From the NCBI RefSeq assembly GCF_009931435.1, contig NZ_CP043414.1: 64,000 bases of DNA; one strand, 5' to 3'. Positions 6,746-51,650 of this stretch are shown piece by piece. Source of the DNA: Escherichia coli. GTDB lineage: Bacteria > Pseudomonadota > Gammaproteobacteria > Enterobacterales > Enterobacteriaceae. Under the pieces are notes generated by a model. The model was not told the origin of the DNA. It did not search any database and saw nothing but the letters and a program-made list of their open reading frames with translations. Position 1 is the stretch's first letter. Every line of letters starts with the position of its first letter. A program made the translations under genes and the position numbers.

Positions 6746-8692
6746 TTACTCTCGTGCCAAAGCATCTACTGGATCCAGTCGTGCCGCATTTCGTGCGGGT
6801 AACCAGCCAAATAAAATCCCGGTGACCGTCGAGCAGAGAAACGCCAGCAGCAGTGCCAACGGTGAAAAACCGATCTCCCAACCGGGTAAGAAAAGCTGCA
6901 AGGTGAAAGCAATTAACAGTGACAGTGTTATTCCCAACGCACCGCCGACCAGACAAACCAGCACGGCTTCGATCAGAAACTGTTGCAAAACATCGCTTGC
7001 TCGCGCACCTACAGCCATGCGAATGCCAATTTCCCGCGTCCGCTCGGTCACTGACACCAGCATAATATTCATTACACCAATACCGCCCACCACCAGCGAA
7101 ATCACCGCCACCAGCGTCAGAAACAGTTGTAAAGTACGTGTGGTCTTTTCAACGGTTTTCAAGACGCCGTCCATGTTCCAGGTAAAGAAATCCTTCTTAC
7201 CGTGGCGCAGTGAAAGTAAACGCGTGAGTTGCTGTTCCGCCTCGGCGCTGTCAAAGCCCTCTTTCACCCTGACAGTAATAGAGTTCAGCCACGACTGGCC
7301 CATAACTCTCCCGGACATCGTGCTGTAAGGTAACCACACGCGCAGCACTTTACTACTGCCAAACATCGACTGTTTTTCCTCTGCCACGCCGATGACTCTC
7401 GCTGGCATATTACCAACCAAGATAACCTCGCCAACCACATTTGCTTTATGGGGGAAAAGCTGACGGCGAGTATTACTGTCGAGAACCACGACTTGCGCAC
7501 GGCCATTCAGCTGTTCCTGATTAAAGGTGTTCCCTTCACTGAAGGTCATGCCATAGACATTAAAATAATCGCCGCTCACGCCATTGGCACTGGCAGCCAC
7601 ATCGACATTGTTATAACGCAGGCGCAGGTTTTGCGAGACGGCAGGTGTGGCTGAGGCGACCCACGGTTGTTTTTGGATGGCGATTAAGTCGTCGTACTTC
7701 AGCGCCTGCTGATATTGCGGATCGTCATCGCCAAAATCTTTCCCGGGATAGACATCAATAGTATTCGTACCAATAGAACGAATATCCGCCAGCACCATTT
7801 GTTTGGCGGCGTCGCCGACCACGACAATGGAAACCACCGACGCAATACCGATAATAATCCCCAGCATGGTCAGTAAAGTACGCATTTTATTCGCTGCCAG
7901 CGCCCGCCACGCCATCGTCAGCGCCTCGTTAAAACCGCTGACAAACTGCCGCCAGCCAGACGCCGTGTTGATAACAGGCTCCGTCCCGCCAGCAACATTC
8001 ACTTTTTCAATGGCGGGAGGATTGCGCACAATTTCGCCGTCGCGAATTTCGATCACCCGCTCGGCCTGAGCAGCGACCTGCGGATCGTGGGTAACGATAA
8101 TCACCGTATGCCCGCGATCGCGCAGCTGATGCAGGATCGCCATTACCTCCTCACCGGAATGGCTGTCCAGTGCGCCTGTCGGTTCATCGGCAAGAATTAC
8201 CTGACCGCCGTTCATCAATGCCCGCGCGATGCTGACGCGCTGTTGCTGACCACCCGAAAGCTGTGCCGGATAATACTCTGTACGGTCTTCAAGCCCCAGT
8301 CGTTGCAATAACTTCTGGGCACGAAGCAGTCGCTGTTTCCGCTCAAGACCCGCATAGACGGCGGGTACTTCAACATTCTGCTCGGCGGTTAAATGTGAAA
8401 GCAAATGGTAACGCTGGAAAATAAAGCCGAAGTGTTCGCGACGCAGTTGCGCCAGCGCATCGGCGTCCAGCATGGCAACATCCTGACCGGCGACGCGATA
8501 GGTGCCGCTGGTGGCCTTATCCAGGCAGCCGAGAATATTCATCAGGGTCGATTTACCGGAACCCGAAGCGCCGACAATCGCCACCATCTCACCAGCATAA
8601 ATATCGAGGGTGATGCCCTTCAGCACCTCAACCTGCTCATCACCGGCAGGATAGCTGCGACGAATATCCTTTAATTCGAGCAAGGGCGTCAT
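6746..8692 (-). CDS. macB: macrolide export ABC transporter, fused ATPase-permease MacB
   Basis: 648 aa; N-terminal Walker [10 protein letters not shown], signature LSGGQQQR; C-terminal FtsX-like permease; ATGA overlap with macA stop. Confidence 0.93.
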
Positions 8693-9804
8693 TGTGCAGC
8701 TCCTGGTTTGGCCTCACCAATCACCACTTCATCGCCCGCTTCCAGCCCTTTGACAATCTCAACATCGGTGTCGTTACGTGCACCAATCGTCACTTCACGC
8801 TCGCGTGTTTCACCATTACGCAACAATTTGACTTTATAACGATTATCGCCAACCGGATCGCCTAACGCCGACAGAGGGATCGTCAGCACATTTTTCACAT
8901 CGGTGAGCTGAATATGCACTTGCGCGGTCATATCCAGCCGCAGCAAACCATTGGGGTTGGGTACTTCAAAACGGGCGTAATAGAAAATAGCGTCGTTAAC
9001 CTTTTCCGGCGTCGGTAGCACATCCTTGATTTGCCCCTCATAGCGCGTCAGCGGATCGCCAAGCACCGTAAACCAGGCTTTTTGCCCCGGCTTCAGGTGG
9101 ATTACATCCGCTTCAGAAACCTGCGCTTTTACCAGCATGGTGCTCATATCTGCCAGCGTCAGAATGTTCGGTGCTTGTTGTGCGGCAATCACCGTCTGGC
9201 CTTGCAGAGTGGTGATTTGCGTGACTTCCCCGGCCATCGGGGCAACGATGCGGGTGTAATCGAGATTGGTTTTAGCCGTATCGAGTGAGGCCTGATTACG
9301 CTTGATTTGCGCGTCAATGGTGCCAATTTGCGCCTGTTTCACAGCCATCTCCGTCGCGGCGGTATCGAGATCCTGCTGTGAAACCGCCTGCGTTTGTGCA
9401 AGACGTTGCTGACGGGAATACGTCACCCGCGCCAGTTTCAGCTCCGCTTCCGCCTGCTGCCGCTGCGCGCGTAGCTCCATCAGCGTTGCTTCCACCTCCT
9501 TGATCTGGTTTTCAGCTTGTTCAGGATCAATAACCCCTAAAAGCTGGTCTTTTTTTACTTTATCGCCAATCGCCACCGACAGCGTTTTCAACTGACCGCT
9601 GACCTGCGCGCCCACATCAACCTTACGCAGCGCGTCCAGCTTTCCGGTCGCCAGCACGCTTTGCTGTAAATCACCGGGGCGCACAATCAGCGTCTGATAA
9701 GTCGGCACGGGTGCGTTAAGAATTCTCCATAACGTAATCAGCCCGGCAATGACTATCACCAGCGCAATAACGTAACGCTTCTTCACGGTTTTCCGCTTTT
9801 TCAT
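8689..9804 (-). CDS. macA: macrolide efflux membrane fusion protein MacA
   Basis: 371-aa product from ATG 9804 ([16 protein letters not shown]...), HlyD-type periplasmic adaptor with coiled coil. Confidence 0.9.
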
Positions 9805-9918: not shown

Positions 9919-10911
9919 ATGGTGAAATCGACGTTATGTACAACCATTGATTTCATGAATATGTCGCAGCTAACTGAACGGACCTTTACGCCATCTGAAT
10001 CTCTCAGCAGCCTGTCACTTTTTCTTAGTCTGGCACGTGGACAGTGTCGGCCGGGTAAATTTTGGCATCGCCGTAGTTTTCGCCAGAAATTTTTGCTGCG
10101 CTCGTTGATTATGCCGCGTTTAAGCGTTGAGTGGATGAACGAACTTTCCCACTGGCCGAATCTCCATGTGTTGTTAACGCGCCAGCCGCGACTGCCTGTG
10201 CGTCTGCATCGCCCTTACCTTGCGGCGAATCTTAGCCGCAAGCAATTGCTGGAGGCGTTACGTTACCATTATGCATTGCTTCGTGCCTGCATGTCGGCAG
10301 AAGAATTCAGCTTATATTTGAATACTCCCGGGCTGCAACTGGCGAAGCTGGAAGGCAAAAACGGCGAGCAGTTCACACTTGAGCTGACCATGATGATCTC
10401 AATGGATAAAGAAGGTGACAGCACAATCCTGTTCCGCAACAGCGAAGGTATTCCTCTGGCAGAGATCACCTTTACTCTGTGTGAATACCAGGGGAAAAGA
10501 ACAATGTTTATTGGCGGGCTGCAAGGTGCGAAATGGGAAATTCCACATCAGGAAATCCAGAATGCGACGAAAGCCTGCCACGGGCTATTTCCCAAACGTC
10601 TCGTGATGGAAGCGGCCTGTCTGTTTGCCCAACGTTTGCAGGTAGAGCAGATCATTGCCGTCAGCAATGAAACACATATTTACCGCAGCCTGCGTTATCG
10701 CGATAAAGAAGGCAAGATCCATGCTGATTACAACGCGTTCTGGGAGTCGGTTGGCGGCGTATGTGATGCTGAACGCCATTACCGCCTTCCGGCACAGATA
10801 GCACGAAAAGAGATTGCCGAAATCGCCAGTAAAAAACGGGCTGAATACCGTCGGCGCTATGAGATGCTCGACGCTATTCAGCCACAAATGGCCACGATGT
10901 TTCGCGGTTAA
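9919..10911 (+). CDS. ybjX: YbjX (VirK/DUF535 family) protein
   Basis: 330-aa ORF with ATG at 9919; identity by recalled sequence and synteny next to macA. Confidence 0.8.
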   Translation: MVKSTLCTTIDFMNMSQLTERTFTPSESLSSLSLFLSLARGQCRPGKFWHRRSFRQKFLLRSLIMPRLSVEWMNELSHWPNLHVLLTRQPRLPVRLHRPYLAANLSRKQLLEALRYHYALLRACMSAEEFSLYLNTPGLQLAKLEGKNGEQFTLELTMMISMDKEGDSTILFRNSEGIPLAEITFTLCEYQGKRTMFIGGLQGAKWEIPHQEIQNATKACHGLFPKRLVMEAACLFAQRLQVEQIIAVSNETHIYRSLRYRDKEGKIHADYNAFWESVGGVCDAERHYRLPAQIARKEIAEIASKKRAEYRRRYEMLDAIQPQMATMFRG

Positions 10912-15203: not shown

Positions 15204-16856
15204 ATGTTTTGTGTGCAATGTGAACAAACTATCCGTACTCCGGCAGGAAACGGCTGCTCATACGCGCAGGGGATGTGTGGTAAAACGGCGGAAACCTCTG
15301 ACCTTCAGGATTTACTCATCGCGGCGCTGCAAGGGCTTTCAGCCTGGGCGGTAAAAGCGCGTGAATACGGCATCATCAACCATGACGTTGACAGCTTCGC
15401 GCCGCGCGCATTTTTCTCAACCCTGACCAACGTTAATTTCGATTCTCCGCGTATTGTCGGCTACGCCCGTGAAGCAATTGCCCTGCGTGAGGCGCTGAAA
15501 GCACAGTGCCTGGCTGTAGATGCCAACGCCCGCGTCGATAACCCGATGGCTGACCTGCAACTGGTGAGTGACGATCTCGGCGAGCTGCAACGTCAGGCGG
15601 CGGAATTTACTCCCAATAAAGATAAAGCGGCGATTGGCGAAAACATTCTCGGCCTGCGTCTGCTCTGCCTGTATGGCCTGAAAGGTGCTGCCGCCTATAT
15701 GGAACACGCGCACGTTCTCGGTCAATATGACAACGATATTTACGCCCAGTACCATAAAATCATGGCATGGCTGGGTACCTGGCCTGCCGATATGAACGCA
15801 CTTCTCGAGTGCTCCATGGAAATCGGCCAGATGAACTTCAAAGTGATGAGCATTCTGGACGCAGGCGAAACAGGTAAATACGGTCACCCGACGCCAACTC
15901 AGGTCAACGTCAAAGCGACGGCGGGTAAATGCATTCTGATTTCCGGTCACGATCTCAAAGATCTCTACAACTTGCTGGAACAGACCGAAGGCACGGGTGT
16001 TAATGTCTACACCCACGGCGAAATGCTGCCTGCCCACGGCTACCCGGAGCTGCGTAAATTCAAGCATCTGGTCGGTAACTACGGCAGCGGCTGGCAGAAT
16101 CAGCAAGTAGAGTTCGCTCGCTTCCCTGGACCTATCGTGATGACCTCGAACTGCATCATCGACCCAACCGTAGGGGCTTATGACGATCGTATCTGGACCC
16201 GCAGCATCGTTGGCTGGCCGGGTGTGCGTCATCTGGATGGTGATGATTTCTCAGCAGTCATCGCCCAGGCGCAACAAATGGCGGGCTTCCCGTACAGCGA
16301 AATTCCGCACCTGATTACCGTGGGCTTTGGTCGTCAGACGCTGCTTGGCGCGGCGGATACGCTGATTGATCTGGTGAGCCGTGAAAAACTGCGTCATATC
16401 TTCCTGCTCGGTGGCTGTGACGGCGCACGCGGCGAGCGCCACTACTTCACCGATTTCGCCACCAGCGTACCAGATGACTGCCTGATCCTGACTCTCGCCT
16501 GCGGTAAATATCGCTTTAACAAACTTGAGTTCGGCGATATCGAAGGTCTGCCGCGTCTGGTAGATGCTGGTCAATGTAACGATGCTTACTCAGCGATTAT
16601 TCTGGCTGTCACTTTGGCAGAAAAACTGGGCTGCGGTGTCAACGATCTGCCGTTGTCGCTGGTACTCTCCTGGTTCGAACAAAAAGCGATTGTTATTCTG
16701 CTGACGCTGCTTTCTCTGGGCGTGAAAAATATCGTTACCGGCCCGACTGCACCTGGCTTCCTGACGCCAGACCTGCTGGCGGTACTGAACGAGAAATTCG
16801 GCCTACGTTCTATCACCACTGTTGAAGAAGACATGAAGCAACTGTTGAGCGCGTAA
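15204..16856 (+). CDS. hcp: hybrid-cluster protein (hydroxylamine reductase / NO-stress protein)
   Basis: 550-aa product from ATG 15204 (MFCVQCEQT...), N-terminal Cys cluster; ORF-track start 15198 is GTG. Confidence 0.93.
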
Positions 16857-16867
16857 GGAGTTTGTCG

Positions 16868-17836
16868 ATGACGATGCCAACCAATCAATGCCCGTGGCGG
16901 ATGCAGGTTCATCACATTACGCAAGAAACGCCGGATGTGTGGACGATTTCCCTGATTTGCCACGATTACTACCCGTATCGCGCCGGGCAATATGCGCTGG
17001 TCAGCGTGCGTAACTCAGCGGAAACGCTGCGTGCTTACACCATTTCCTCCACACCAGGCGTGAGTGATTACATCACTCTGACCGTGCGGCGGATTGATGA
17101 CGGTGTCGGTTCCCAGTGGCTGACCCGCGATGTAAAACGCGGTGACTACCTCTGGCTTTCGGACGCGATGGGGGAATTTACCTGCGACGATAAAGCAGAA
17201 GATAAATTCCTGTTGCTGGCGGCCGGCTGCGGCGTCACGCCGATTATGTCGATGCGTCGCTGGCTGGCGAAAAACCGTCCGCAGGCTGATGTGCAGGTGA
17301 TCTACAACGTGCGTACGCCGCAGGATGTCATTTTCGCGGATGAGTGGCGTAATTACCCGGTGACACTGGTGGCGGAAAATAATGTTACCGAGGGATTCGT
17401 TGCCGGACGCCTGACTCGCGAACTGCTGGCCCGCGTTCCTGATTTAGCCTCGCGTACTGTAATGACCTGTGGCCCGGCTCCGTATATGGATTGGGTAGAA
17501 CAGGAAGTGAAAGCGCTCGGCGTGACGCGTTTCTTTAAAGAGAAGTTCTTTACGCCAGTGGCGGAAGCAGCAACCAGCGGTCTGAAATTCACCAAACTGC
17601 AACCGGCGCAAGAATTTTACGCACCTGTTGGCACCACACTGCTGGAGGCTTTGGAAAGCAACAAAGTTCCGGTTGTCGCCGCCTGCCGTGCAGGTGTTTG
17701 CGGCTGCTGTAAGACGAAAGTGGTTTCCGGTGAATATACGGTGAGTAGCACAATGACGCTGACCGACGCCGAAATCGCAGAAGGTTATGTACTGGCCTGC
17801 TCCTGCCATCCGCAGGGGGATTTGGTTCTCGCATAA
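16868..17836 (+). CDS. hcr: NADH oxidoreductase for Hcp
   Basis: 322-aa product from ATG 16868 preceded by AAGGAG; C-terminal 2Fe-2S Cys cluster CRAGVCGCCKTKV. Confidence 0.9.
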   Translation: MTMPTNQCPWRMQVHHITQETPDVWTISLICHDYYPYRAGQYALVSVRNSAETLRAYTISSTPGVSDYITLTVRRIDDGVGSQWLTRDVKRGDYLWLSDAMGEFTCDDKAEDKFLLLAAGCGVTPIMSMRRWLAKNRPQADVQVIYNVRTPQDVIFADEWRNYPVTLVAENNVTEGFVAGRLTRELLARVPDLASRTVMTCGPAPYMDWVEQEVKALGVTRFFKEKFFTPVAEAATSGLKFTKLQPAQEFYAPVGTTLLEALESNKVPVVAACRAGVCGCCKTKVVSGEYTVSSTMTLTDAEIAEGYVLACSCHPQGDLVLA

Positions 17837-19724: not shown

Positions 19725-20726
19725 ATGATTGATTTACGCAGTGATACCGTTACCCGACCGAGCCGCGCCATGCTCGAAGCAATGATGGCCGCCCCGGTTG
19801 GGGACGACGTTTACGGAGACGACCCTACCGTTAATGCTCTGCAGGACTATGCGGCAGAGCTTTCCGGGAAAGAAGCCGCCATTTTTCTGCCTACCGGCAC
19901 TCAGGCCAACCTGGTCGCTCTGCTCAGTCACTGCGAACGCGGCGAAGAGTATATTGTCGGTCAGGCCGCGCATAACTATCTGTTTGAAGCCGGTGGCGCA
20001 GCGGTGCTGGGCAGTATTCAGCCGCAACCCATCGATGCTGACGCCGACGGTACGCTACCGCTGGATAAAGTGGCGATGAAAATCAAACCCGACGATATCC
20101 ATTTCGCCCGCACCAAATTACTCAGTCTGGAAAACACCCACAATGGAAAAGTGCTGCCGCGGGAATACCTGAAAGAAGCATGGGAATTTACTCGCGAGCG
20201 CAATCTGGCACTGCATGTTGACGGTGCGCGCATCTTTAATGCCGTGGTGGCTTACGGCTGCGAACTGAAAGAGATCACGCAATATTGTGATTCGTTCACC
20301 ATTTGTCTGTCGAAAGGTCTTGGTACGCCAGTCGGTTCATTACTTGTCGGTAATCGTGATTACATTAAACGCGCCATCCGCTGGCGGAAAATGACTGGCG
20401 GCGGGATGCGCCAGTCCGGGATTCTGGCCGCCGCCGGAATGTATGCGCTGAAAAATAACGTTGCACGCTTGCAGGAAGACCACGATAACGCCGCCTGGAT
20501 GGCGGAGCAACTGCGTGAAGCAGGCGCGGATGTCATGCGCCAGGACACCAATATGCTGTTTGTCCGCGTCGGACAAGAAAATGCTGCCGCATTAGGCGAA
20601 TACATGAAAGCGAGAAACATACTGATTAACGCCTCGCCGATTGTCCGCCTGGTAACCCATCTCGATGTCTCGCGTGAACAACTGGCAGAAGTCGCAGCCC
20701 ACTGGCGCGCTTTCCTGGCGCGTTAA
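19725..20726 (+). CDS. ltaE: low-specificity L-threonine aldolase
   Basis: 333-aa PLP-dependent aldolase-like ORF immediately after poxB. Confidence 0.9.
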
Positions 20727-20736
20727 GGAGAGAGAC

Positions 20737-22167
20737 GTGCCGCAACGCATTTTAGTTCTCGGTGCCAGTGGCTACATTGGTCAGCATCTGGTGCACGCGC
20801 TTAGCCAACAAGGGCATCAGATCCTGGCGGCGGCACGTCACGTCGACAGGCTTGAAAAGCTGCAACTGGCAAACGTCAGTTGCCATAAAGTCGATCTCAG
20901 CTGGCCGGATAACCTTCCGGCCCTGTTGCAGAATATCGATACCGTCTATTTTCTGGTGCACAGCATGGGCGAAGGCGGCGATTTTATCGCTCAGGAGCGC
21001 CAGGTGGCTCTTAACGTCCGCGATGCGCTGCGCGAAGCACCGGTTAAACAATTAATCTTTCTCAGTTCATTGCAGGCCCCGCCTCACGAGCAGTCGGACC
21101 ATCTGCGCGCCCGTCAGGCTACGGCGGATATTCTTCGTGAAGCGGGTGTTCCGGTGACCGAATTGCGTGCCGGAATTATCGTTGGCGCAGGTTCAGCGGC
21201 GTTCGAAGTCATGCGCGATATGGTGTACAACCTGCCAGTGTTAACGCCGCCACGCTGGGTTCGTTCACGCACCACGCCCATCGCGCTGGAAAACTTGCTG
21301 CACTATCTGGTGGCGCTGTTAGATCATCCGGCCAGCGAACACCGCATCTTCGAAGCCGCCGGACCAGAGGTGCTCAGTTATCAGCAACAGTTTGAACATT
21401 TTATGGCGGTGAGCGGTAAGCGCCGCTGGTTAATCCCCATCCCCTTTCCCACCCGCTGGATTTCGGTGTGGTTTCTCAATGTGATTACTTCCGTACCGTC
21501 AACCACCGCCAAAGCGTTGATTCAGGGGCTGAAACATGATCTGCTGGCGGATGACACCGCGCTACGTGCACTCATCCCACAACGGCTGATCGCTTTCGAT
21601 GACGCGGTACGTCGCACCCTGAAAGAAGAAGAAAAGCTGGTCAACTCCAGCGACTGGGGATACGACGCTCAGGCCTTTGCCCGCTGGCGACCGGAGTACG
21701 GTTATTTCGCCAAACAGGCGGGGTTTACCGTTAAAACGTCCGCCAGCCTTGCGGCTTTATGGCAGGTGGTGAATCAAATCGGCGGTCAAGAGCGTTATTT
21801 CTTTGGCAATATTTTGTGGCAAACCCGGGCGTTGATGGACCGCGCGATCGGTCATAAGCTGGCGAAAGGCCGCCCGGAGCGTGAATATTTGCAGACCGGA
21901 GATGCGGTGGATAGCTGGAAAGTGATTGTCGTTGAACCGGAAAAACAACTTACGCTGTTATTTGGCATGAAAGCGCCGGGGCTGGGACGACTGTGTTTTA
22001 CCCTGGAAGATAAAGGTGACTATCGTACTATCGATGTTCGCGCATTCTGGCATCCGCACGGTATGCCGGGGCTGTTTTACTGGTTACTGATGATCCCCGC
22101 GCATCTGTTTATTTTTCGCGGAATGGCAAAACGAATCGCCAGACTGGCAGAACAAAGCACAGATTAA
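20737..22167 (+). CDS. ybjT: NAD(P)-binding Rossmann-fold protein YbjT
   Basis: 476-aa product from GTG at 20737 preceded by AAGGAG (6-nt spacer); N-terminal [12 protein letters not shown]; ORF-track start 20665 overlaps ltaE and is rejected. Confidence 0.8.
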
Positions 22168-33573: not shown

Positions 33574-34419
33574 TCAGCCACGTCTTGCACGCTGGATGTC
33601 GCGTATCCGCTGTTTTTCTGCGCGCGCCATCAGATACCAGGCGATAAATCCGACAATTCCGACTGCGCCGAGGATTAATGTTGCCAGGGCGTTGATTTCC
33701 GGATTCACCCCCATCCGCACGCTGGAGAAGACCAGCATCGGTAACGTGGTGGCTCCTGGCCCGGAAACAAAGCTGGCAATCACCAGATCGTCGAGCGACA
33801 GAGTAAAAGCCAGTAACCAGCCAGAAATGATCGCGGGCATGATCATCGGTAGCGTAATGACGAAAAACACTTTCAGCGGCGTCGCACCGAGATCCATCGC
33901 TGCTTCTTCAATGGAACGGTCCAGCTCCCGCAGACGCGACGAAATAACGACTGCCACATAAGCCGTACAGAAAGTGACATGCGCCAGCCAGATGGTGAGC
34001 ATGCCTCGCTCCGCAGGCCAGCCGATGGCATGTGCAAGTGCGACGAATAACAACAACAGCGACAAGCCCGTGATGACATCTGGCATCACCAGCGGCGCGG
34101 TGATCATAAAGGCAAAACCATTTGATCCGCGAAACCTGCCAAAGCGCACCAGCACGACCGCCGCAATCGTCCCGAGGATCGCCGCCGCCGTTGCCGCACA
34201 GGCAGCTATTGTCAGGCTTAAACCAACCGCACTCATCATCGCGTCATCGCGCAATAATTCGCCATACCAGCGCGTTGACCAGCCGGCCCACACCGTCACC
34301 AGCTTCGAGCTGTTGAATGAATAGATCACCAGCATCAGCATTGGCGCGTAGAGAAAGGTGAAGCCCAACAGCAAAATCACAATTCGCCAGGGCGAACGAA
34401 CCACCGGTAAATTATTCAT
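33574..34419 (-). CDS. potI: putrescine ABC transporter permease PotI
   Basis: 281-aa product from ATG 34419 (MNNLPVVRSPW...), ATGA overlap with potH. Confidence 0.9.
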   Translation of the reverse strand: MNNLPVVRSPWRIVILLLGFTFLYAPMLMLVIYSFNSSKLVTVWAGWSTRWYGELLRDDAMMSAVGLSLTIAACAATAAAILGTIAAVVLVRFGRFRGSNGFAFMITAPLVMPDVITGLSLLLLFVALAHAIGWPAERGMLTIWLAHVTFCTAYVAVVISSRLRELDRSIEEAAMDLGATPLKVFFVITLPMIMPAIISGWLLAFTLSLDDLVIASFVSGPGATTLPMLVFSSVRMGVNPEINALATLILGAVGIVGFIAWYLMARAEKQRIRDIQRARRG

Positions 34420-35369
34420 CCGTGTTCTCCCACGCTTTTTTGCTGATGCTTGTGGAACCACATTATCGGCACAATTAGCAGCAACAACATGATGATCGCC
34501 ACTGCCGAGGCCACCGGCCAGTCACGGTTGTTAAAGAACTCCTGCCACAGCACGCGTCCGATCATGATGCTATCCGGACCGCCGAGCAGCTCCGGGATTA
34601 CAAACTCTCCCACTGCCGGAATAAAAACCAGCATCGATCCGGCAATAATACCCCCTTTGGTGAGCGGCACGATCACAGTAAAGAATGTTTTCAGCGGTCG
34701 AGCGCCGAGATCCAGTGCCGCTTCCACCAGCGAATAATCAATACGAATCAAGGCGGTGTAGATCGGCAGCACCATAAACGGTACATAGGCATAAACAATG
34801 CCAATATAAACGGCCAGGTTTGTATGCAGAATGGTCAGCGGCTGGTCGATAACCCCCAGCCACAGCAGAAAATTATTCAGCACGCCGTTATTTTTTAATA
34901 TTCCCATCCAGGCATAAACGCGGATCAGAAACGAGGTCCACGACGGCAGGATCACCAGCAGCAATAAGATATTGCGGGTCGAAGGCTTACTGTGCGCCAC
35001 CGCCCACGCCAGCGGATAGCCGATCAGTAAACAACAAATTGTCGAAATCGCCGCTACCTGTAACGACTGGAGATATGCATCGAAATAGAGCGGATCGTCA
35101 GTCAGTTGCAGGAAATTACCAAGATTGAGGGTGATGGAAAGTTGCCCGTCAGCCCACTCCATCAGTTCGGTATAAGGTGGAATAGCGCGCGCCATCTCCG
35201 CCAGACTTATTTTAAAGACGATCAGAAATGGCAGCAGAAACAGCAAGATCAACCAGATATACGGCAACGCAATGACCAGTTTGCGCCCATGCTTCATTTG
35301 CAGCTGCGACAACCACAGCTTAAATCCGCCCGGCGGTTTCGACTGGGCAGCAGGTTCAAGTGTACTCAT
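34416..35369 (-). CDS. potH: putrescine ABC transporter permease PotH
   Basis: 317-aa multi-TM permease. Confidence 0.9.
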   Translation of the reverse strand: MSTLEPAAQSKPPGGFKLWLSQLQMKHGRKLVIALPYIWLILLFLLPFLIVFKISLAEMARAIPPYTELMEWADGQLSITLNLGNFLQLTDDPLYFDAYLQSLQVAAISTICCLLIGYPLAWAVAHSKPSTRNILLLLVILPSWTSFLIRVYAWMGILKNNGVLNNFLLWLGVIDQPLTILHTNLAVYIGIVYAYVPFMVLPIYTALIRIDYSLVEAALDLGARPLKTFFTVIVPLTKGGIIAGSMLVFIPAVGEFVIPELLGGPDSIMIGRVLWQEFFNNRDWPVASAVAIIMLLLLIVPIMWFHKHQQKSVGEHG

Positions 35370-35378
35370 CTTTGCTCC

Positions 35379-36512
35379 TTAAACCGTCAGCACCACACAA
35401 CTGTCCACTTCCCAGCACAAGCGCACTTCATCGCCCCAGGTGGGTAATCCTTTACGATAACGATGGGCATTTTGTAGCTGGGCGCTGATCATCTGCCCGC
35501 TTTTCAGGCGAACGTGATAGACCGAAAGATCGCCGAGATAGGCAATGTGCATCACCTCCCCCACCGCGAAGTTACAACCATTGGCGGGCGGTTCTTCACA
35601 AAGCATGATTTTTTCCGGACGCAGCGCCACATGCACCGGCACGTTATCGACCACCGAAGCATCTACATCAACTTTCAGTGGATGCACCAGCCCCGGCGAA
35701 TAAAGCACCAGACCATCTTCCTGACGCTCTTTGAGTACACCTTCAAAGACGTTTACCGAACCGATAAATTCAGCACTGTAGCGCGTGGTCGGATGCTCGT
35801 AGATCTCTTCCGGCTCGCCAATCTGGACAAATTTCCCACGATTCATAATGGCGATGCGCCCCGCCATGGTCATCGCCTCTTCCTGATCGTGAGTGACCAT
35901 TACGCAGGTCACACCGACGCGCTCCAGAATATCCACCACTTCAAGCTGCATCCGGTCACGCAGCTTTTTATCCAGCGCGCCCATCGGCTCATCGAGCAGT
36001 AATAGTTTCGGGCGCTTGGCAAGGCTTCGGGCCAGCGCCACACGCTGTCGCTGACCGCCGGAAAGCTGGTGCGGTTTGCGTTTGGCGAACTCCTGCATAT
36101 GCACCAGCCCAAGCATCTCATTGACCCGGCTGGCAATTTCCGCTTTCGGTAGTTTGTCCTGTTTCAGGCCAAAAGCGATGTTCTGTTCCACGGTCATATG
36201 CGGAAACAGCGCGTAAGACTGAAACATCATATTGATGGGGCGCAGGTAAGGCGGCACCTGTGACAAATCGACGCCATCGAGCATAATCTGCCCGGCAGAA
36301 GGTTGTTCGAAACCTGCCAGCATACGCAGCAGCGTGGACTTGCCACAGCCGGATGCGCCCAGCAGCGCGAAGATTTCGCCTTTATAGATGGTCAGGCTGA
36401 CATCATCGACCGCATGCTGACCATCGTAAGATTTAGTCAGATTACGGATTTCTAATAGCGGCGTCAGCGCCTTACGGGTTTTCGCCTGGGGGCGAGGGAT
36501 AGCGTCATTCAC
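35379..36512 (-). CDS. potG: putrescine ABC transporter ATP-binding protein PotG
   Basis: 377-aa product from GTG at 36512; Walker A GASGCGKST, signature LSGGQRQRVALARSL; the longer ORF-track N-terminus is not supported. Confidence 0.88.
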   Translation of the reverse strand: MNDAIPRPQAKTRKALTPLLEIRNLTKSYDGQHAVDDVSLTIYKGEIFALLGASGCGKSTLLRMLAGFEQPSAGQIMLDGVDLSQVPPYLRPINMMFQSYALFPHMTVEQNIAFGLKQDKLPKAEIASRVNEMLGLVHMQEFAKRKPHQLSGGQRQRVALARSLAKRPKLLLLDEPMGALDKKLRDRMQLEVVDILERVGVTCVMVTHDQEEAMTMAGRIAIMNRGKFVQIGEPEEIYEHPTTRYSAEFIGSVNVFEGVLKERQEDGLVLYSPGLVHPLKVDVDASVVDNVPVHVALRPEKIMLCEEPPANGCNFAVGEVMHIAYLGDLSVYHVRLKSGQMISAQLQNAHRYRKGLPTWGDEVRLCWEVDSCVVLTV

Positions 36513-39595: not shown

Positions 39596-40318
39596 TTAGC
39601 GCGTAGCCCAACCCTGTTTGTGCAAATAATCCAGTATAAATGGGCGGCTTTCTTTAATGATTGTTCGGCGGATATGATCGCTCCAGGTATCCCGGCGATT
39701 ATTGCTGCCACGGGTGAGGTAATATTCCGCCAGTTGTTCGTCATACTGCGCCAGTGCGTCTTTATCCAGCGGTTGATAGCTGTTTTCATGCACCAAAATG
39801 GAAGCCGGTAAACGCGGCTTAAGATCTGGATTATCCGCAGGCCAGCCAAGGCACAGCCCAAACAGCGGCAGAACATGCTGCGGTAATTTCAGCAGTTCCG
39901 TCACCGCTTCAATATTATTGCGCAGGCCGCCGATATATACCCCGCCCAATCCCAGCGATTCCGCTGCGGTTAACGCATTCTGCGCCATCATTGCCGTATC
40001 AACGACACCGAGCAACAGTTGTTCCGCCAGGCCAAGTTGTGCATCCGGACAGATCTGTAAATGGCGGTTAAAGTCGGCACAGAACACCCAAAACTCCGCC
40101 GCTTTCGCTACGTGTTTTTGCCCGCCGGTCAGCGTCACCAGTTCATCACGTAACGCTTTGTCGGTAATGCGAATAATGCTACTGCACTGCAAAAAACTGG
40201 AACTGGACGTCGCACGGGCGCTGTTAATAATCGCCTCACGCTGCGCTTCGGAAATGGGTTCATCAGTGAAATGGCGAATGGAGCGATGGCCACAAATAAG
40301 TTCAATGGTTGGCGTCAT
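39596..40318 (-). CDS. nfsA: oxygen-insensitive NADPH nitroreductase NfsA
   Basis: 240-aa nitroreductase-family ORF. Confidence 0.93.
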   Translation of the reverse strand: MTPTIELICGHRSIRHFTDEPISEAQREAIINSARATSSSSFLQCSSIIRITDKALRDELVTLTGGQKHVAKAAEFWVFCADFNRHLQICPDAQLGLAEQLLLGVVDTAMMAQNALTAAESLGLGGVYIGGLRNNIEAVTELLKLPQHVLPLFGLCLGWPADNPDLKPRLPASILVHENSYQPLDKDALAQYDEQLAEYYLTRGSNNRRDTWSDHIRRTIIKESRPFILDYLHKQGWATR

Positions 40319-44162: not shown

Positions 44163-45371
44163 ATGACCGTAAATTCTTCACGTAATGCATTGAAACGCCG
44201 AACCTGGGCGCTGTTTATGTTCTTCTTTTTGCCGGGCCTGTTAATGGCGTCCTGGGCAACTCGTACACCTGCTATCCGCGATATTCTTTCTGTTTCGATC
44301 GCTGAAATGGGCGGAGTCCTCTTTGGTCTGTCGATCGGTTCAATGAGCGGTATTCTCTGCTCGGCGTGGTTAGTGAAACGCTTTGGGACGCGTAATGTCA
44401 TCCTGGTCACGATGTCCTGCGCATTGCTCGGGATGATGATATTAAGCCTGGCGCTCTGGCTGACATCGCCCGTGCTCTTTGCCGTTGGTCTCGGCGTCTT
44501 TGGGGCTAGTTTTGGTTCTGCAGAAGTGGCGATAAACGTTGAGGGTGCCGCCGTTGAGCGAGAAATGAATAAAACGGTTTTACCGATGATGCACGGTTTT
44601 TATAGCCTGGGCACGCTGGCAGGCGCTGGTGTCGGGATGGCACTGACGGCCTTTGGCGTTCCGGCAACGGTGCATATTTTATTGGCGGCGCTGGTAGGCA
44701 TCGCGCCTATTTATATCGCCATTCAGGCAATCCCTGACGGTACGGGCAAAAATGCTGCCGATGGCACCCAGCATGGTGAAAAAGGCGTACCTTTTTATCG
44801 GGATATCCAGTTGCTGCTGATTGGTGTTGTGGTACTGGCGATGGCCTTTGCCGAAGGTTCTGCCAACGACTGGTTACCCTTATTAATGGTTGACGGTCAC
44901 GGTTTTAGCCCTACTTCCGGCTCGCTGATTTATGCCGGTTTTACCCTGGGGATGACTGTTGGACGCTTTACCGGCGGTTGGTTCATCGACCGTTATAGTC
45001 GCGTTGCCGTGGTTCGGGCCAGTGCACTGATGGGAGCGTTGGGTATTGGGCTGATTATTTTTGTCGATAGCGCCTGGGTCGCTGGGGTGTCTGTTGTACT
45101 TTGGGGACTGGGTGCCTCGCTGGGCTTCCCGCTGACCATTTCTGCCGCCAGCGATACCGGACCCGATGCACCAACCCGCGTCAGCGTAGTGGCAACGACC
45201 GGTTATCTGGCTTTCCTCGTCGGGCCTCCGCTACTGGGCTATCTCGGCGAACATTATGGATTACGTAGTGCAATGTTGGTTGTACTGGCGCTGGTTATTC
45301 TTGCGGCTATTGTCGCGAAAGCCGTCGCCAAACCCGATACCCAAACGCAGACGGCGATGGAGAATAGTTGA
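44163..45371 (+). CDS. ybjJ: MFS transporter YbjJ
   Basis: 402-aa 12-TM-like ORF. Confidence 0.85.
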
Positions 45372-46186
45372 TGAGCATTAAATTAATTGCGGTAGACATG
45401 GATGGTACTTTCTTAAGCGATCAAAAAACCTATAACCGTGAGCGGTTTATGGCTCAGTATCAGCAGATGAAAGCACAAGGCATTCGCTTTGTGGTCGCCA
45501 GCGGGAATCAATATTATCAGTTGATCTCTTTCTTCCCTGAAATTGCTAATGAAATTGCCTTTGTGGCAGAAAACGGCGGTTGGGTAGTGAGCGAAGGCAA
45601 AGATGTTTTTAATGGCGAGCTGTCGAAGGATGCGTTTGCTACTGTCGTGGAACATTTGCTGACGCGCCCGGAAGTGGAAATTATTGCCTGCGGAAAAAAT
45701 AGCGCCTATACCCTCAAAAAATATGACGATGCCATGAAAACGGTGGCGGAAATGTATTATCACCGTCTGGAATACGTCGATAACTTTGATAATTTAGAAG
45801 ATATCTTCTTTAAGTTTGGCCTGAATCTTTCCGATGAACTGATTCCACAAGTGCAAAAAGCATTACATGAGACCATCGGCGATATTATGGTGCCGGTCCA
45901 CACCGGCAACGGCAGCATCGATCTGATTATCCCCGGCGTACATAAAGCGAATGGCCTGCGCCAACTTCAGAAATTATGGGGAATAGACGACAGCGAAGTG
46001 GTGGTCTTCGGCGATGGTGGTAACGATATTGAGATGCTGCGTCAGGCAGGCTTTAGTTTTGCGATGGAAAATGCCGGCAGCGCGGTCGTCGCAGCGGCAA
46101 AATACCGGGCAGGCTCCAATAATCATGAAGGTGTACTGGATGTGATCGATAAAGTTCTTAAACACGAAGCGCCTTTTGATCAATAA
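45371..46186 (+). CDS. ybjI: HAD-family (Cof-type) phosphatase YbjI
   Basis: 271-aa product from ATG 45371 (TGATG overlap with ybjJ); HAD motif I VDMDGT; ORF-track start 45368 is TTG. Confidence 0.85.
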   Translation: MSIKLIAVDMDGTFLSDQKTYNRERFMAQYQQMKAQGIRFVVASGNQYYQLISFFPEIANEIAFVAENGGWVVSEGKDVFNGELSKDAFATVVEHLLTRPEVEIIACGKNSAYTLKKYDDAMKTVAEMYYHRLEYVDNFDNLEDIFFKFGLNLSDELIPQVQKALHETIGDIMVPVHTGNGSIDLIIPGVHKANGLRQLQKLWGIDDSEVVVFGDGGNDIEMLRQAGFSFAMENAGSAVVAAAKYRAGSNNHEGVLDVIDKVLKHEAPFDQ

Positions 46187-48768: not shown

Positions 48769-49527
48769 ATGGAAACACGTCGCGAAGAGCGTATCGGGCA
48801 GCTGCTGCAAGAATTAAAACGCAGCGATAAGTTACATCTTAAAGACGCCGCCGCCCTGCTTGGGGTTTCGGAGATGACGATTCGTCGCGATCTGAATAAC
48901 CACAGCGCCCCCGTCGTTTTGCTTGGCGGCTATATTGTTCTGGAACCGCGCAGCGCCAGCCATTATCTGTTAAGCGATCAAAAATCCCGTCTGGTAGAGG
49001 AAAAACGCCGGGCGGCAAAACTGGCTGCGACGCTGGTAGAACCCGATCAGACCCTCTTTTTTGACTGTGGCACCACCACACCGTGGATTATTGAAGCGAT
49101 TGATAATGAAATCCCTTTTACCGCCATTTGTTATTCGCTAAATACCTTTCTGGCACTGAAAGAGAAACCTCATTGCCGCGCGTTTCTTTGCGGTGGTGAA
49201 TTTCACGCCAGCAACGCCATTTTCAAACCCATCGATTTTCAGCAAACGCTGAATAATTTTTGCCCGGATATCGCTTTTTATTCCGCGGCGGGGGTGCATG
49301 TCAGTAAGGGCGCTACCTGTTTTAATCTTGAAGAGTTGCCGGTAAAACACTGGGCCATGTCGATGGCGCAAAAGCATGTGCTGGTTGTCGACCACAGTAA
49401 ATTTGGCAAGGTGCGTCCGGCGCGCATGGGTGACCTGAAACGCTTTGACATTGTGGTGAGCGATTGTTGCCCGGAAGATGAGTATGTGAAGTACGCGCAG
49501 ACGCAGCGTATTAAGTTGATGTATTAA
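48769..49527 (+). CDS. deoR: DeoR transcriptional repressor
   Basis: 252 aa; N-terminal HTH LLGVSEMTIRRDL. Confidence 0.93.
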   Translation: METRREERIGQLLQELKRSDKLHLKDAAALLGVSEMTIRRDLNNHSAPVVLLGGYIVLEPRSASHYLLSDQKSRLVEEKRRAAKLAATLVEPDQTLFFDCGTTTPWIIEAIDNEIPFTAICYSLNTFLALKEKPHCRAFLCGGEFHASNAIFKPIDFQQTLNNFCPDIAFYSAAGVHVSKGATCFNLEELPVKHWAMSMAQKHVLVVDHSKFGKVRPARMGDLKRFDIVVSDCCPEDEYVKYAQTQRIKLMY

Positions 49528-49574
49528 TGATGCATAACCGGATGACGTTTCCACGCCATCCGGTTATCACAAAA

Positions 49575-50777
49575 TCAAGAGAACCAGCTGCCGAACCACT
49601 GATGGAATTTCATCATCACGAAATCCCACATCCGACCAAAGAATCCACCCTCTTCCACATTTTCCATCACGATCAGCGGGCGCTGTTCAATGGATTTACC
49701 GTTAAGCTGGAAATCAATGGTGCCGACAACCTGACCTTTTTTCAGCGGTGCGGTAAGCTGCGGTTCCGTTAACGTATAACTCGCTTTCAGGTTTTTCAGC
49801 TGCCCACGCGGTATGGTCACGGATCCCGCTTCGCCTGCCCCGAGATTCACTTCGCTCTTATCACCAAACCAGACGCGCTGAGTCACAAAGGTGGCATCAG
49901 GTTTAATTGGCGTCACGGTTTCAAAGAAGCGGAAACCCCAGGTCAATAATTTCTCAGACTCATTAAAACGGATACGGTCAGTTTTCGCCCCCAGCACTAC
50001 GGAGATTAAACGCATATCGCCCTGGGTAGCCGAAGCAACCAGATTATATCCCGCGCCTGCCGTGGTTCCTGTCTTCATGCCATCAACATTCAGATTGCTG
50101 CTCCATAGCAGACGGTTACGGTTAGGCTGACGAATTTTGTTGAAGGTGAACTCTTTCTCTTTATGAATGGCGTACTCTTCTGGCACATCGTGAATCAGTG
50201 CTTTACCCAGCAATGCCATATCGCGCGCGGTACTGAACTGCCCCGGCGCATCCAGACCGTGCACCGTCTGGAAGGTCGTGTTGGTCAGCCCCAGTTTTTT
50301 GGCATAACCATTCATCAAACCAATAAATGACTCCTGGCTCCCGGCAACGTAATCAGCCAGCGCAATACAGGCGTCATTACCGGACTGGATAATCACGCCT
50401 TTGTTCAAGTCTGCCACCGAAACCTGATCGCCTGGTTTGAGGAACATTACCGACGAACCACGCAGTGCCGGGTTTCCCGTCGCCCAGGCATCTTTACCGA
50501 CCGTCACCATATCGGTGAGTTTAATCTTATCGGCCTTAAGCGCCTGCCCAACCACATAGCTGGTCATGATTTTAGTCAGGCTCGCGGGGTCCAGTTTCTC
50601 ATCCGCATTGCCTTCTGCCAGCACTTTACCGCTGGCGTAATCCATTAAAATCCATGCACGCGCATCCACGCTCGGCGCTTCAACGGTTTGTTCCGCCGCG
50701 AATGCCGTTGGGGCAAAAAGGAATAAAAATGCAGAACCCGCTGCAAGACCACGAAGGAGAGAGGAGTATTGCGTCAT
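49575..50777 (-). CDS. dacC: D-alanyl-D-alanine carboxypeptidase DacC (PBP6)
   Basis: 400-aa product from ATG 50777; active-site motifs SLTK, SGND, KTGT. Confidence 0.93.
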
Positions 50778-51023: not shown

Positions 51024-51650
51024 ATGATTACGCTGTGGGGTCGGAATAATTCAACCAACGTAAAAAAAGTATTGCTGACGCTCGAAGAACTGGAACTACC
51101 TTATGAGCAAATTCTCGCGGGCCGTGAGTTTGGGGTAAACCACGATGCTGATTTTCTGGCGATGAACCCTAACGGGCTGGTGCCGTTATTGCGTGACGAC
51201 GAAAGTGATCTCATTCTTTGGGAATCAAACGCCATTGTCCGCTATCTGGCGGCACAGTATGGGCAAAACCGCCTGTGGATCGACTCACCGGCACGCCGTG
51301 CAGAAGCGGAAAAATGGATGGACTGGGCAAACCAGACGCTCAGTAATGCCCATCGCGGGATCCTGATGGGATTAGTCAGAACACCACCGGAAGAGCGCGA
51401 TCAGGCCGCCATTGATGCCAGTTGCAAAGAGTGCGACGCCCTGTTTGCCCTGCTCGATGCGGAACTGGCAAAAGTAAAATGGTTCTCTGGCGACGAGTTT
51501 GGTGTGGGCGATATCGCTATCGCTCCGTTCATCTACAATTTATTTAACGTTGGCCTGACCTGGACACCGCGTCCAAATCTGCAACGCTGGTATCAGCAAC
51601 TCACTGAACGCCCCGCAGTGCGCAAAGTGGTGATGATCCCCGTTAGCTAA
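51024..51650 (+). CDS. gstB: glutathione S-transferase GstB
   Basis: 208-aa GST-fold ORF. Confidence 0.9.

Follow-up and report, generated by a model that had tools for sequence, protein, structure and literature searches.

Stop/start overlaps between macA and macB and at four other gene pairs of Escherichia coli as likely sites of translational coupling

The window, by which we mean the whole 64,000-nucleotide stretch of the Escherichia coli contig NZ_CP043414.1 (assembly GCF_009931435.1) that was analysed, is collinear with the cydC-to-iaaA region of the E. coli chromosome, lies in reversed orientation relative to K-12, and shares 98.6-99.2% identity with complete RefSeq E. coli genomes. 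The gene models were transferred to the window from the closest genome, NZ_ABACVG020000001, as annotated by PGAP. An intact frame with a canonical start and stop was obtained for 59 of the 60 transferred models, and cydC and iaaA run past the window ends. The only model that did not transfer intact is that of a pentapeptide-repeat gene; a frameshift makes it a pseudogene in the reference, and in the window it is intact. Here the gene encodes 613 amino acids (ORF 24636-26477, minus strand; Pfam PF13599 and PF00805) and lies inside a segment of approximately 2.6 kb (24430-27060) between ybjQ and ybjP, where the K-12 table lists no gene between ybjP (b0865) and ybjQ (b0866). The segment was found in 1,128 of 5,426 complete E. 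coli genomes, in 17 of them at an identity of at least 99% and in 1,109 at 80-90%. Its distribution and this split in identity therefore identify it as an accessory, allelically divergent locus.

At five places in the window, the stop codon of one gene overlaps the start codon of the next gene on the same strand (Table 1). All five upstream genes (macA, potH, ybjQ, artQ and ybjJ) end in TGA, and the stop and start codons share two bases in the three ATGA junctions and one base in the two TGATG junctions. The initial annotation, which was made from the letters of the sequence, had listed these five overlaps, and every one of their positions is borne out by the sequence read in gene orientation and by the RefSeq models. 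One pair had been named there as amiD/ybjQ; the overlap exists, and the order of the two genes must be reversed, with ybjQ upstream and amiD downstream. The list is also complete, in that the same five pairs, and no others among the 38 co-directional adjacent pairs of the window, have a spacing of -4 or -1. The gene ends at the junctions agree both with the transferred RefSeq/PGAP models and with a mechanical list of open reading frames, and Pfam domains are present in YbjQ, AmiD, YbjJ and YbjI.

Table 1. Coordinates of the five stop/start junctions, of macA and macB, and of the Shine-Dalgarno (SD) sequences preceding the downstream starts (window positions).
Feature	Position	Strand	Description
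macA/macB junction, ATGA	8689..8692	-	macA stop TGA and macB start ATG, spacing -4; TCAT on the plus strand
potH/potI junction, ATGA	34416..34419	-	potH stop and potI start, spacing -4
ybjQ/amiD junction, ATGA	24103..24106	-	ybjQ stop and amiD start, spacing -4
artQ/artM junction, TGATG	29991..29995	+	base 29993 common to artQ stop and artM start, spacing -1
ybjJ/ybjI junction, TGATG	45369..45373	+	base 45371 common to ybjJ stop and ybjI start, spacing -1
macA	8689..9804	-	371 aa; periplasmic adaptor of the MacAB-TolC pump; upstream member
macB	6746..8692	-	648 aa; ABC transporter; downstream member
macB SD, AGGAG	8700..8704	-	in the last macA codons, 7 nt before ATG; anti-SD duplex -6.6 kcal/mol
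potI SD, GGGAG	34427..34431	-	inside potH, 7 nt before ATG; anti-SD duplex -7.3 kcal/mol
amiD SD-like, GGTGA	24117..24121	-	weaker; inside ybjQ, 10 nt before ATG; anti-SD duplex -6.3 kcal/mol
artM SD, GGAGG	29980..29984	+	inside artQ, 8 nt before ATG; anti-SD duplex -9.5 kcal/mol
ybjI SD, GGAG	45359..45362	+	inside ybjJ, 8 nt before ATG; anti-SD duplex -6.4 kcal/mol

Other arrangements of closely packed genes are also found in the window. Two longer overlaps, neither of them in the initial annotation, join ybjC to nfsA (17 nt, 40302-40318, minus strand; the K-12 table also gives -17) and iaaA to gsiA (14 nt, 63971-63984, minus strand; the annotated start of gsiA is TTG). In both pairs, the downstream gene is in the other relative reading frame from that of the -4/-1 class. 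A gsiA start at -4 or -1 on the iaaA stop (GTGATG) was rejected because neither codon is in the gsiA frame. Three of the 11 convergent pairs of the window have stop/stop overlaps of 4 nt, namely ybjX and ybjD (TTAA, 10908-10911), ybjS and amiD (CTAA, 23276-23279), and gstB and yliI (CTAA, 51647-51650). Because the second of these adds to the junction with ybjQ, amiD is overlapped by its neighbours at both ends. In addition, hcp/hcr (15204-17836), ltaE/ybjT (19725-22167) and potG/potH (35379-36512) are spaced by +9 to +11 nt, with an SD sequence within the tiny spacer. These three pairs belong to a small E. coli-specific peak at +9 to +12, and all of them are found in Table S3 of Huber et al. 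(2023; PMC10666635).

The five overlaps could be artefacts of annotation if the true downstream starts lay further in and the genes did not overlap at all. In favour of this reading, alternative in-frame starts exist in macB (TTG, codon 4), potI (GTG, codon 6) and artM (ATG, codon 9). However, later starts would remove functional parts of two of the proteins. The overlapping ATG of amiD gives a lipoprotein signal peptide with a lipobox, and the sole alternative, TTG at codon 12, would delete the n-region of this signal peptide. With the overlapping ATG of ybjI, the HAD catalytic motif DMDGT (DxDGT) falls at residues 9-13, and the next ATG, codon 10, would delete the catalytic Asp9. MacB residues 1-648 match PDB chain 5nik_J from end to end, and the macB ATG is the aligned residue 1 in five Enterobacterales species. 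Moreover, a correctly spaced SD sequence precedes all five ATGs, and the PGAP and K-12 annotations concur on these starts; in potI and artM, the overlapping ATG is the start that has the correctly spaced SD sequence and that both annotations give. On this evidence, the overlapping ATGs appear to be the true initiation codons; the case is strong for amiD, ybjI and macB, and for potI and artM it is drawn from SD spacing and annotation only. We regard an origin of the overlaps in misplaced starts as extremely improbable. Confirmation of the start codons of macB, potI, amiD, artM and ybjI is of value mainly for correct annotation. At the ybjJ/ybjI junction, the plus-strand sequence at 45368-45373 is TTGATG, so that a TTG at 45368 gives a TTGA (-4) alternative to the annotated ATG (-1).

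The predicted duplexes of the anti-SD sequence with the region upstream of the downstream starts reach -6.3 kcal/mol or lower at all five junctions, vs 6.3% of the 7,152 positions scored in the interior of the window's coding sequences. The five starts also equal or beat the median (-6.3 kcal/mol) of the 57 annotated starts that were scored. Because such energies are rare at internal coding positions and typical of annotated starts, we consider the SD sequences embedded in the upstream genes to be real ribosome-binding signals.

According to a count of both strands, the bare motifs occur 573 times (ATGA) and 237 times (TGATG) in the window. They also lie on stop codons at which no annotated gene starts, ATGA on those of aat and yljB, and TRATG on those of ybjO, deoR, iaaA and the pentapeptide gene. 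Either motif alone is uninformative. The deoR stop forms TAATG (49525-49772, plus strand), and its ATG opens an unannotated ORF of 81 aa at 49527-49772, which is wholly antisense to the 3′ end of dacC and is probably spurious; it follows that the motif by itself is no mark of a coupled gene. The spacing of genes provides a different type of information. The window has 16 co-directional pairs with a spacing within +/-20 nt, and five of these have a spacing of exactly -4 or -1, vs 0.78 expected under uniform spacing (binomial P = 7.7e-4); real starts thus do not fall on real stops at random. Compared with the entire E. coli genome, the window is unremarkable: 7 of its 38 co-directional pairs are spaced within -8 to +6 nt, vs 9.0 expected from the genome-wide figure of 707 among 2,987 unidirectional pairs (Huber et al., 2023; PMC10666635). 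All five overlaps are already present, with the same distances, in the K-12 list of the same study (Supplementary Table S2), where macA/macB, potH/potI and artQ/artM, unlike ybjQ/amiD and ybjJ/ybjI, are marked as pairs of complex subunits. The five junctions are of the ordinary type that is most common in bacterial operons, and they were already known.

These observations bear on a reading in which genome compaction, together with the ease with which overlaps evolve, yields them as a by-product, and in which the downstream genes are translated mainly independently by free 30S subunits directed by the SD sequences. The occurrence of ATGA and TRATG on stops where no gene begins agrees with this reading, and a start codon followed by A already yields an out-of-frame TGA. 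Since three of the four bases of the -4 arrangement come from the start codon, it arises easily in evolution. Furthermore, the SD sequences of the five downstream genes are as strong as those of typical independent starts. This is a point against coupling, since with a good SD sequence on each downstream gene, free 30S subunits could initiate there independently.

The conservation of the junctions has to be weighed against such a by-product. The overlap of macA and macB is retained in five of five Enterobacterales relatives (Escherichia albertii, Citrobacter, Enterobacter, Photorhabdus and Yersinia), three with ATGA and two with TAATG, at MacB identities of 64-96%. The letters AATGA are invariant in the alignment of the window with these five relatives, and the -1 and -4 forms differ by a single C>T change, by which the last macA codon, CAA, becomes TAA. 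All six aligned species retain a G-rich SD-like block, whereas the C-terminal residues of MacA vary. The persistence of the overlap across this range of protein identity, while the adjacent codons of the MacA tail change, argues against a mere effect of compaction. Beyond the Enterobacterales, a scan of genomes for MacB gave 80 loci from many phyla, 64 of which have a MacA-like adaptor gene directly upstream. The adaptor and MacB genes are spaced at -4 or -1 in 18 of the 64 if the start nearest the aligned N-terminus is called, or in 30 of the 64 if the longest ORF with an overlap of no more than 8 nt is called, and they fall within -8 to +6 nt in 32-43 of the 64, depending on the start-calling rule. 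Outside the Enterobacterales, the two genes are separated at many of these junctions by a small gap (+1 or +2) or by a longer spacer, as independent translation of compacted genes would allow. Overlap is the modal class at adaptor-MacB junctions and is not universal. Stacked starts like those of ybjJ/ybjI are also seen at the adaptor-MacB junction of locus L009 (GTGATGATG). For two of the other pairs, published statistics on syntenic COG pairs in 1,695 species give a central distance of -3.1 for PotB@PotC (range -4 to 3, n=2,075) and of -1 for ArtQ@ArtM (range -4 to 2, n=434).

In a second alternative, of the atpH/atpA type, RNA structure would lock the downstream ribosome-binding site, upstream ribosomes would melt the structure, and new 30S subunits would then bind. 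As reported by Rex et al. (1994), translation of atpA depends on that of atpH within the same operon, as is proposed for the pairs described here, and a structure sequesters the downstream ribosome-binding site; in contrast, no structure above background is predicted at our five junctions. None of the five 101-nt junction segments folds better in silico than its dinucleotide shuffles (z from -1.36 to +1.12, with 22 to 178 of 200 shuffles folding at least as well), although short folds of this kind cannot exclude structure in vivo. Unfolding is a recognised model, and in the minimum-free-energy fold of macA/macB the SD region lies inside a local hairpin. However, in reporter assays of native ATGA pairs from E. 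coli, the region between -99 and +30 sufficed for coupling, which was read as evidence against long-range structure (PMC6728339). We consider coupling by unfolding improbable at these junctions.

With regard to transcription, macAB and potFGHI are termed operons in the literature. There is no space for a terminator between the genes of a pair because they overlap. On the coding strand of macAB, a consensus scan detected neither promoter-like nor terminator-like sites in macA or at its junction with macB, which is weak evidence, and the sole hits on this strand were two sites resembling terminators close to the 3′ end of macB. A programmed frameshift fusing MacA to MacB was also considered and was rejected, given that no slippery heptamer precedes the stop (GCA CAA TGA) and that solved structures show MacB as a separate protein.

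Coupling linked to gene overlaps has been studied with regard to its frequency and its mechanisms since the work on the trp operon, and the subject was reviewed in 2025. The stop/start overlaps trpB/trpA and trpE/trpD of E. coli, which belong to an operon other than those of the five pairs, were reportedly described by Oppenheim and Yanofsky in 1980 and by Das and Yanofsky in 1989. Two mechanisms of coupling are established, termination-reinitiation and RNA unfolding (PMC12548453). According to the first, RF2 would terminate translation at the upstream gene's UGA, and the terminating ribosome, or its 30S subunit, would be incompletely released from the mRNA, being retained by pairing of the 16S rRNA anti-SD sequence with the SD sequence 7-10 nt upstream. 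The retained ribosome could then step back a few nucleotides onto the AUG and reinitiate, and the output of the downstream protein would track the translation of the upstream gene. Such a mechanism would fit the 1:1 permease pairs PotH/PotI and ArtQ/ArtM and, for MacA/MacB, a roughly equimolar synthesis.

The spacing that permits reinitiation extends from approximately -8 to +6 or +10 nt (PMC10666635), and the five pairs, at -4 and -1, lie inside this range. Close spacing is required, since approximately 20 nt of extra spacing nearly abolishes coupling (PMC10666635). Termination-reinitiation is the best-supported mechanism because the spacing and the SD sequences are present and there is no sign of a masking structure, and we think it probable that it couples the five pairs to a substantial degree. 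The initial annotation had held that the overlaps indicate coupling. This claim can be retained in part: the genes are co-directional, are spaced at -4 or -1, have embedded SD sequences and, for macA/macB, keep the overlap in related species, which together are the structural prerequisites of coupling. However, an overlap is no guarantee of coupling, as bioBF and the variable translation-efficiency ratios of overlapping pairs demonstrate. By analogy with the assayed pairs, an overlap is likely to be accompanied by coupling but is no demonstration of it.

The closest experimental parallels are native E. coli ATGA pairs that were studied in dual reporters with mRNA normalisation, in which four of five were strictly or substantially coupled (Huber et al., 2019; PMC6728339). 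In that study, hyfHI, astDB and ydbH/ynbE were strictly coupled, menDH was coupled at approximately 60%, and bioBF was uncoupled; removal of the SD sequence lowered reinitiation in four of the five pairs. As at our ATGA junctions, hyfH/hyfI, astD/astB, ydbH/ynbE and menD/menH combine a -4 AUGA with an SD sequence in the upstream gene. The difference is that their coupling, which varies in strength, was demonstrated with premature-stop reporters, whereas the five pairs described here are known from sequence. The pair bioB/bioF has an overlap architecture identical to that of the ATGA pairs here, yet it exhibits no coupling and full de novo initiation despite a weak SD sequence, and it is a documented counter-example to inferring coupling from overlap (PMC6728339). 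A literature search found no relevant coupling experiment on macAB, and the pairs assayed by Huber et al. (2019; PMC6728339) include none of the five; no published coupling test of any of the five pairs came to light in the sources searched. The supplements of Burkhardt 2017 contain none of the six genes that were sought, and among the junction genes, a kasugamycin translatome supplement contains ybjI only, in a form that is uninformative on coupling.

The example of bioBF is what would be expected if compaction alone produced the overlaps. The same is true of ribosome profiling data in which translation-efficiency ratios varied to about the same extent among 73 overlapping pairs and among 253 non-overlapping ones (K-S p = 0.06; PMC5318159). 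In addition, no interaction or complex is known between the products of ybjQ and amiD or between those of ybjJ and ybjI, so that there is no stoichiometric rationale for coupling in these two of the five pairs. However, the four coupled ATGA pairs were coupled despite their SD sequences (PMC6728339), and subunits of heteromeric complexes show a 4.5-fold enrichment among E. coli gene pairs that overlap or lie close together (PMC10666635); three of the five pairs here encode such subunits. Together with the conservation of macA/macB, this evidence makes mainly independent, SD-driven translation of the downstream genes seem rather unlikely, and termination-reinitiation remains the reading that we prefer.

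The abundance of the pump proteins provides a further view of the macA/macB junction. Chromosomally tagged MacA and MacB are each present at approximately 60 +/- 25 copies per cell, which corresponds to a ratio of approximately 1:1 (less than 1.5:1) vs the assembly ratio of 6:2 (PMC11905320). This abundance fits near-equimolar, coupled synthesis better than the 6:2 stoichiometry of the assembly, with the caveats that the MacA count comes from a C-terminal fusion that may itself disturb the macA/macB junction and that protein stability is uncontrolled in the copy ratio. According to the same study, the copy numbers of MacA and MacB "did not change much" upon deletion of the partner gene (PMC11905320); the meaning of these numbers depends on the design of the deletions, and they neither support nor exclude coupling of macA to macB. 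It is a tentative possibility, and one that we hold with some doubt, that the ATGA of macA/macB enforces synthesis at approximately 1:1, sets expression away from MacA6:MacB2, and is itself the cause of the reported "transporter excess". If this were true, coupling of macA and macB would work against the stoichiometry of the complex, contrary to the usual rationale by which overlaps match the supply of subunits.

For work on these genes, the overlaps have a practical meaning. Nonsense or polar mutations or C-terminal tags in macA, potH, ybjQ, artQ and ybjJ may lower or alter the expression of the downstream gene, and when any of these genes is engineered or deleted, it is advisable to keep the last approximately 20 nt of the upstream gene.
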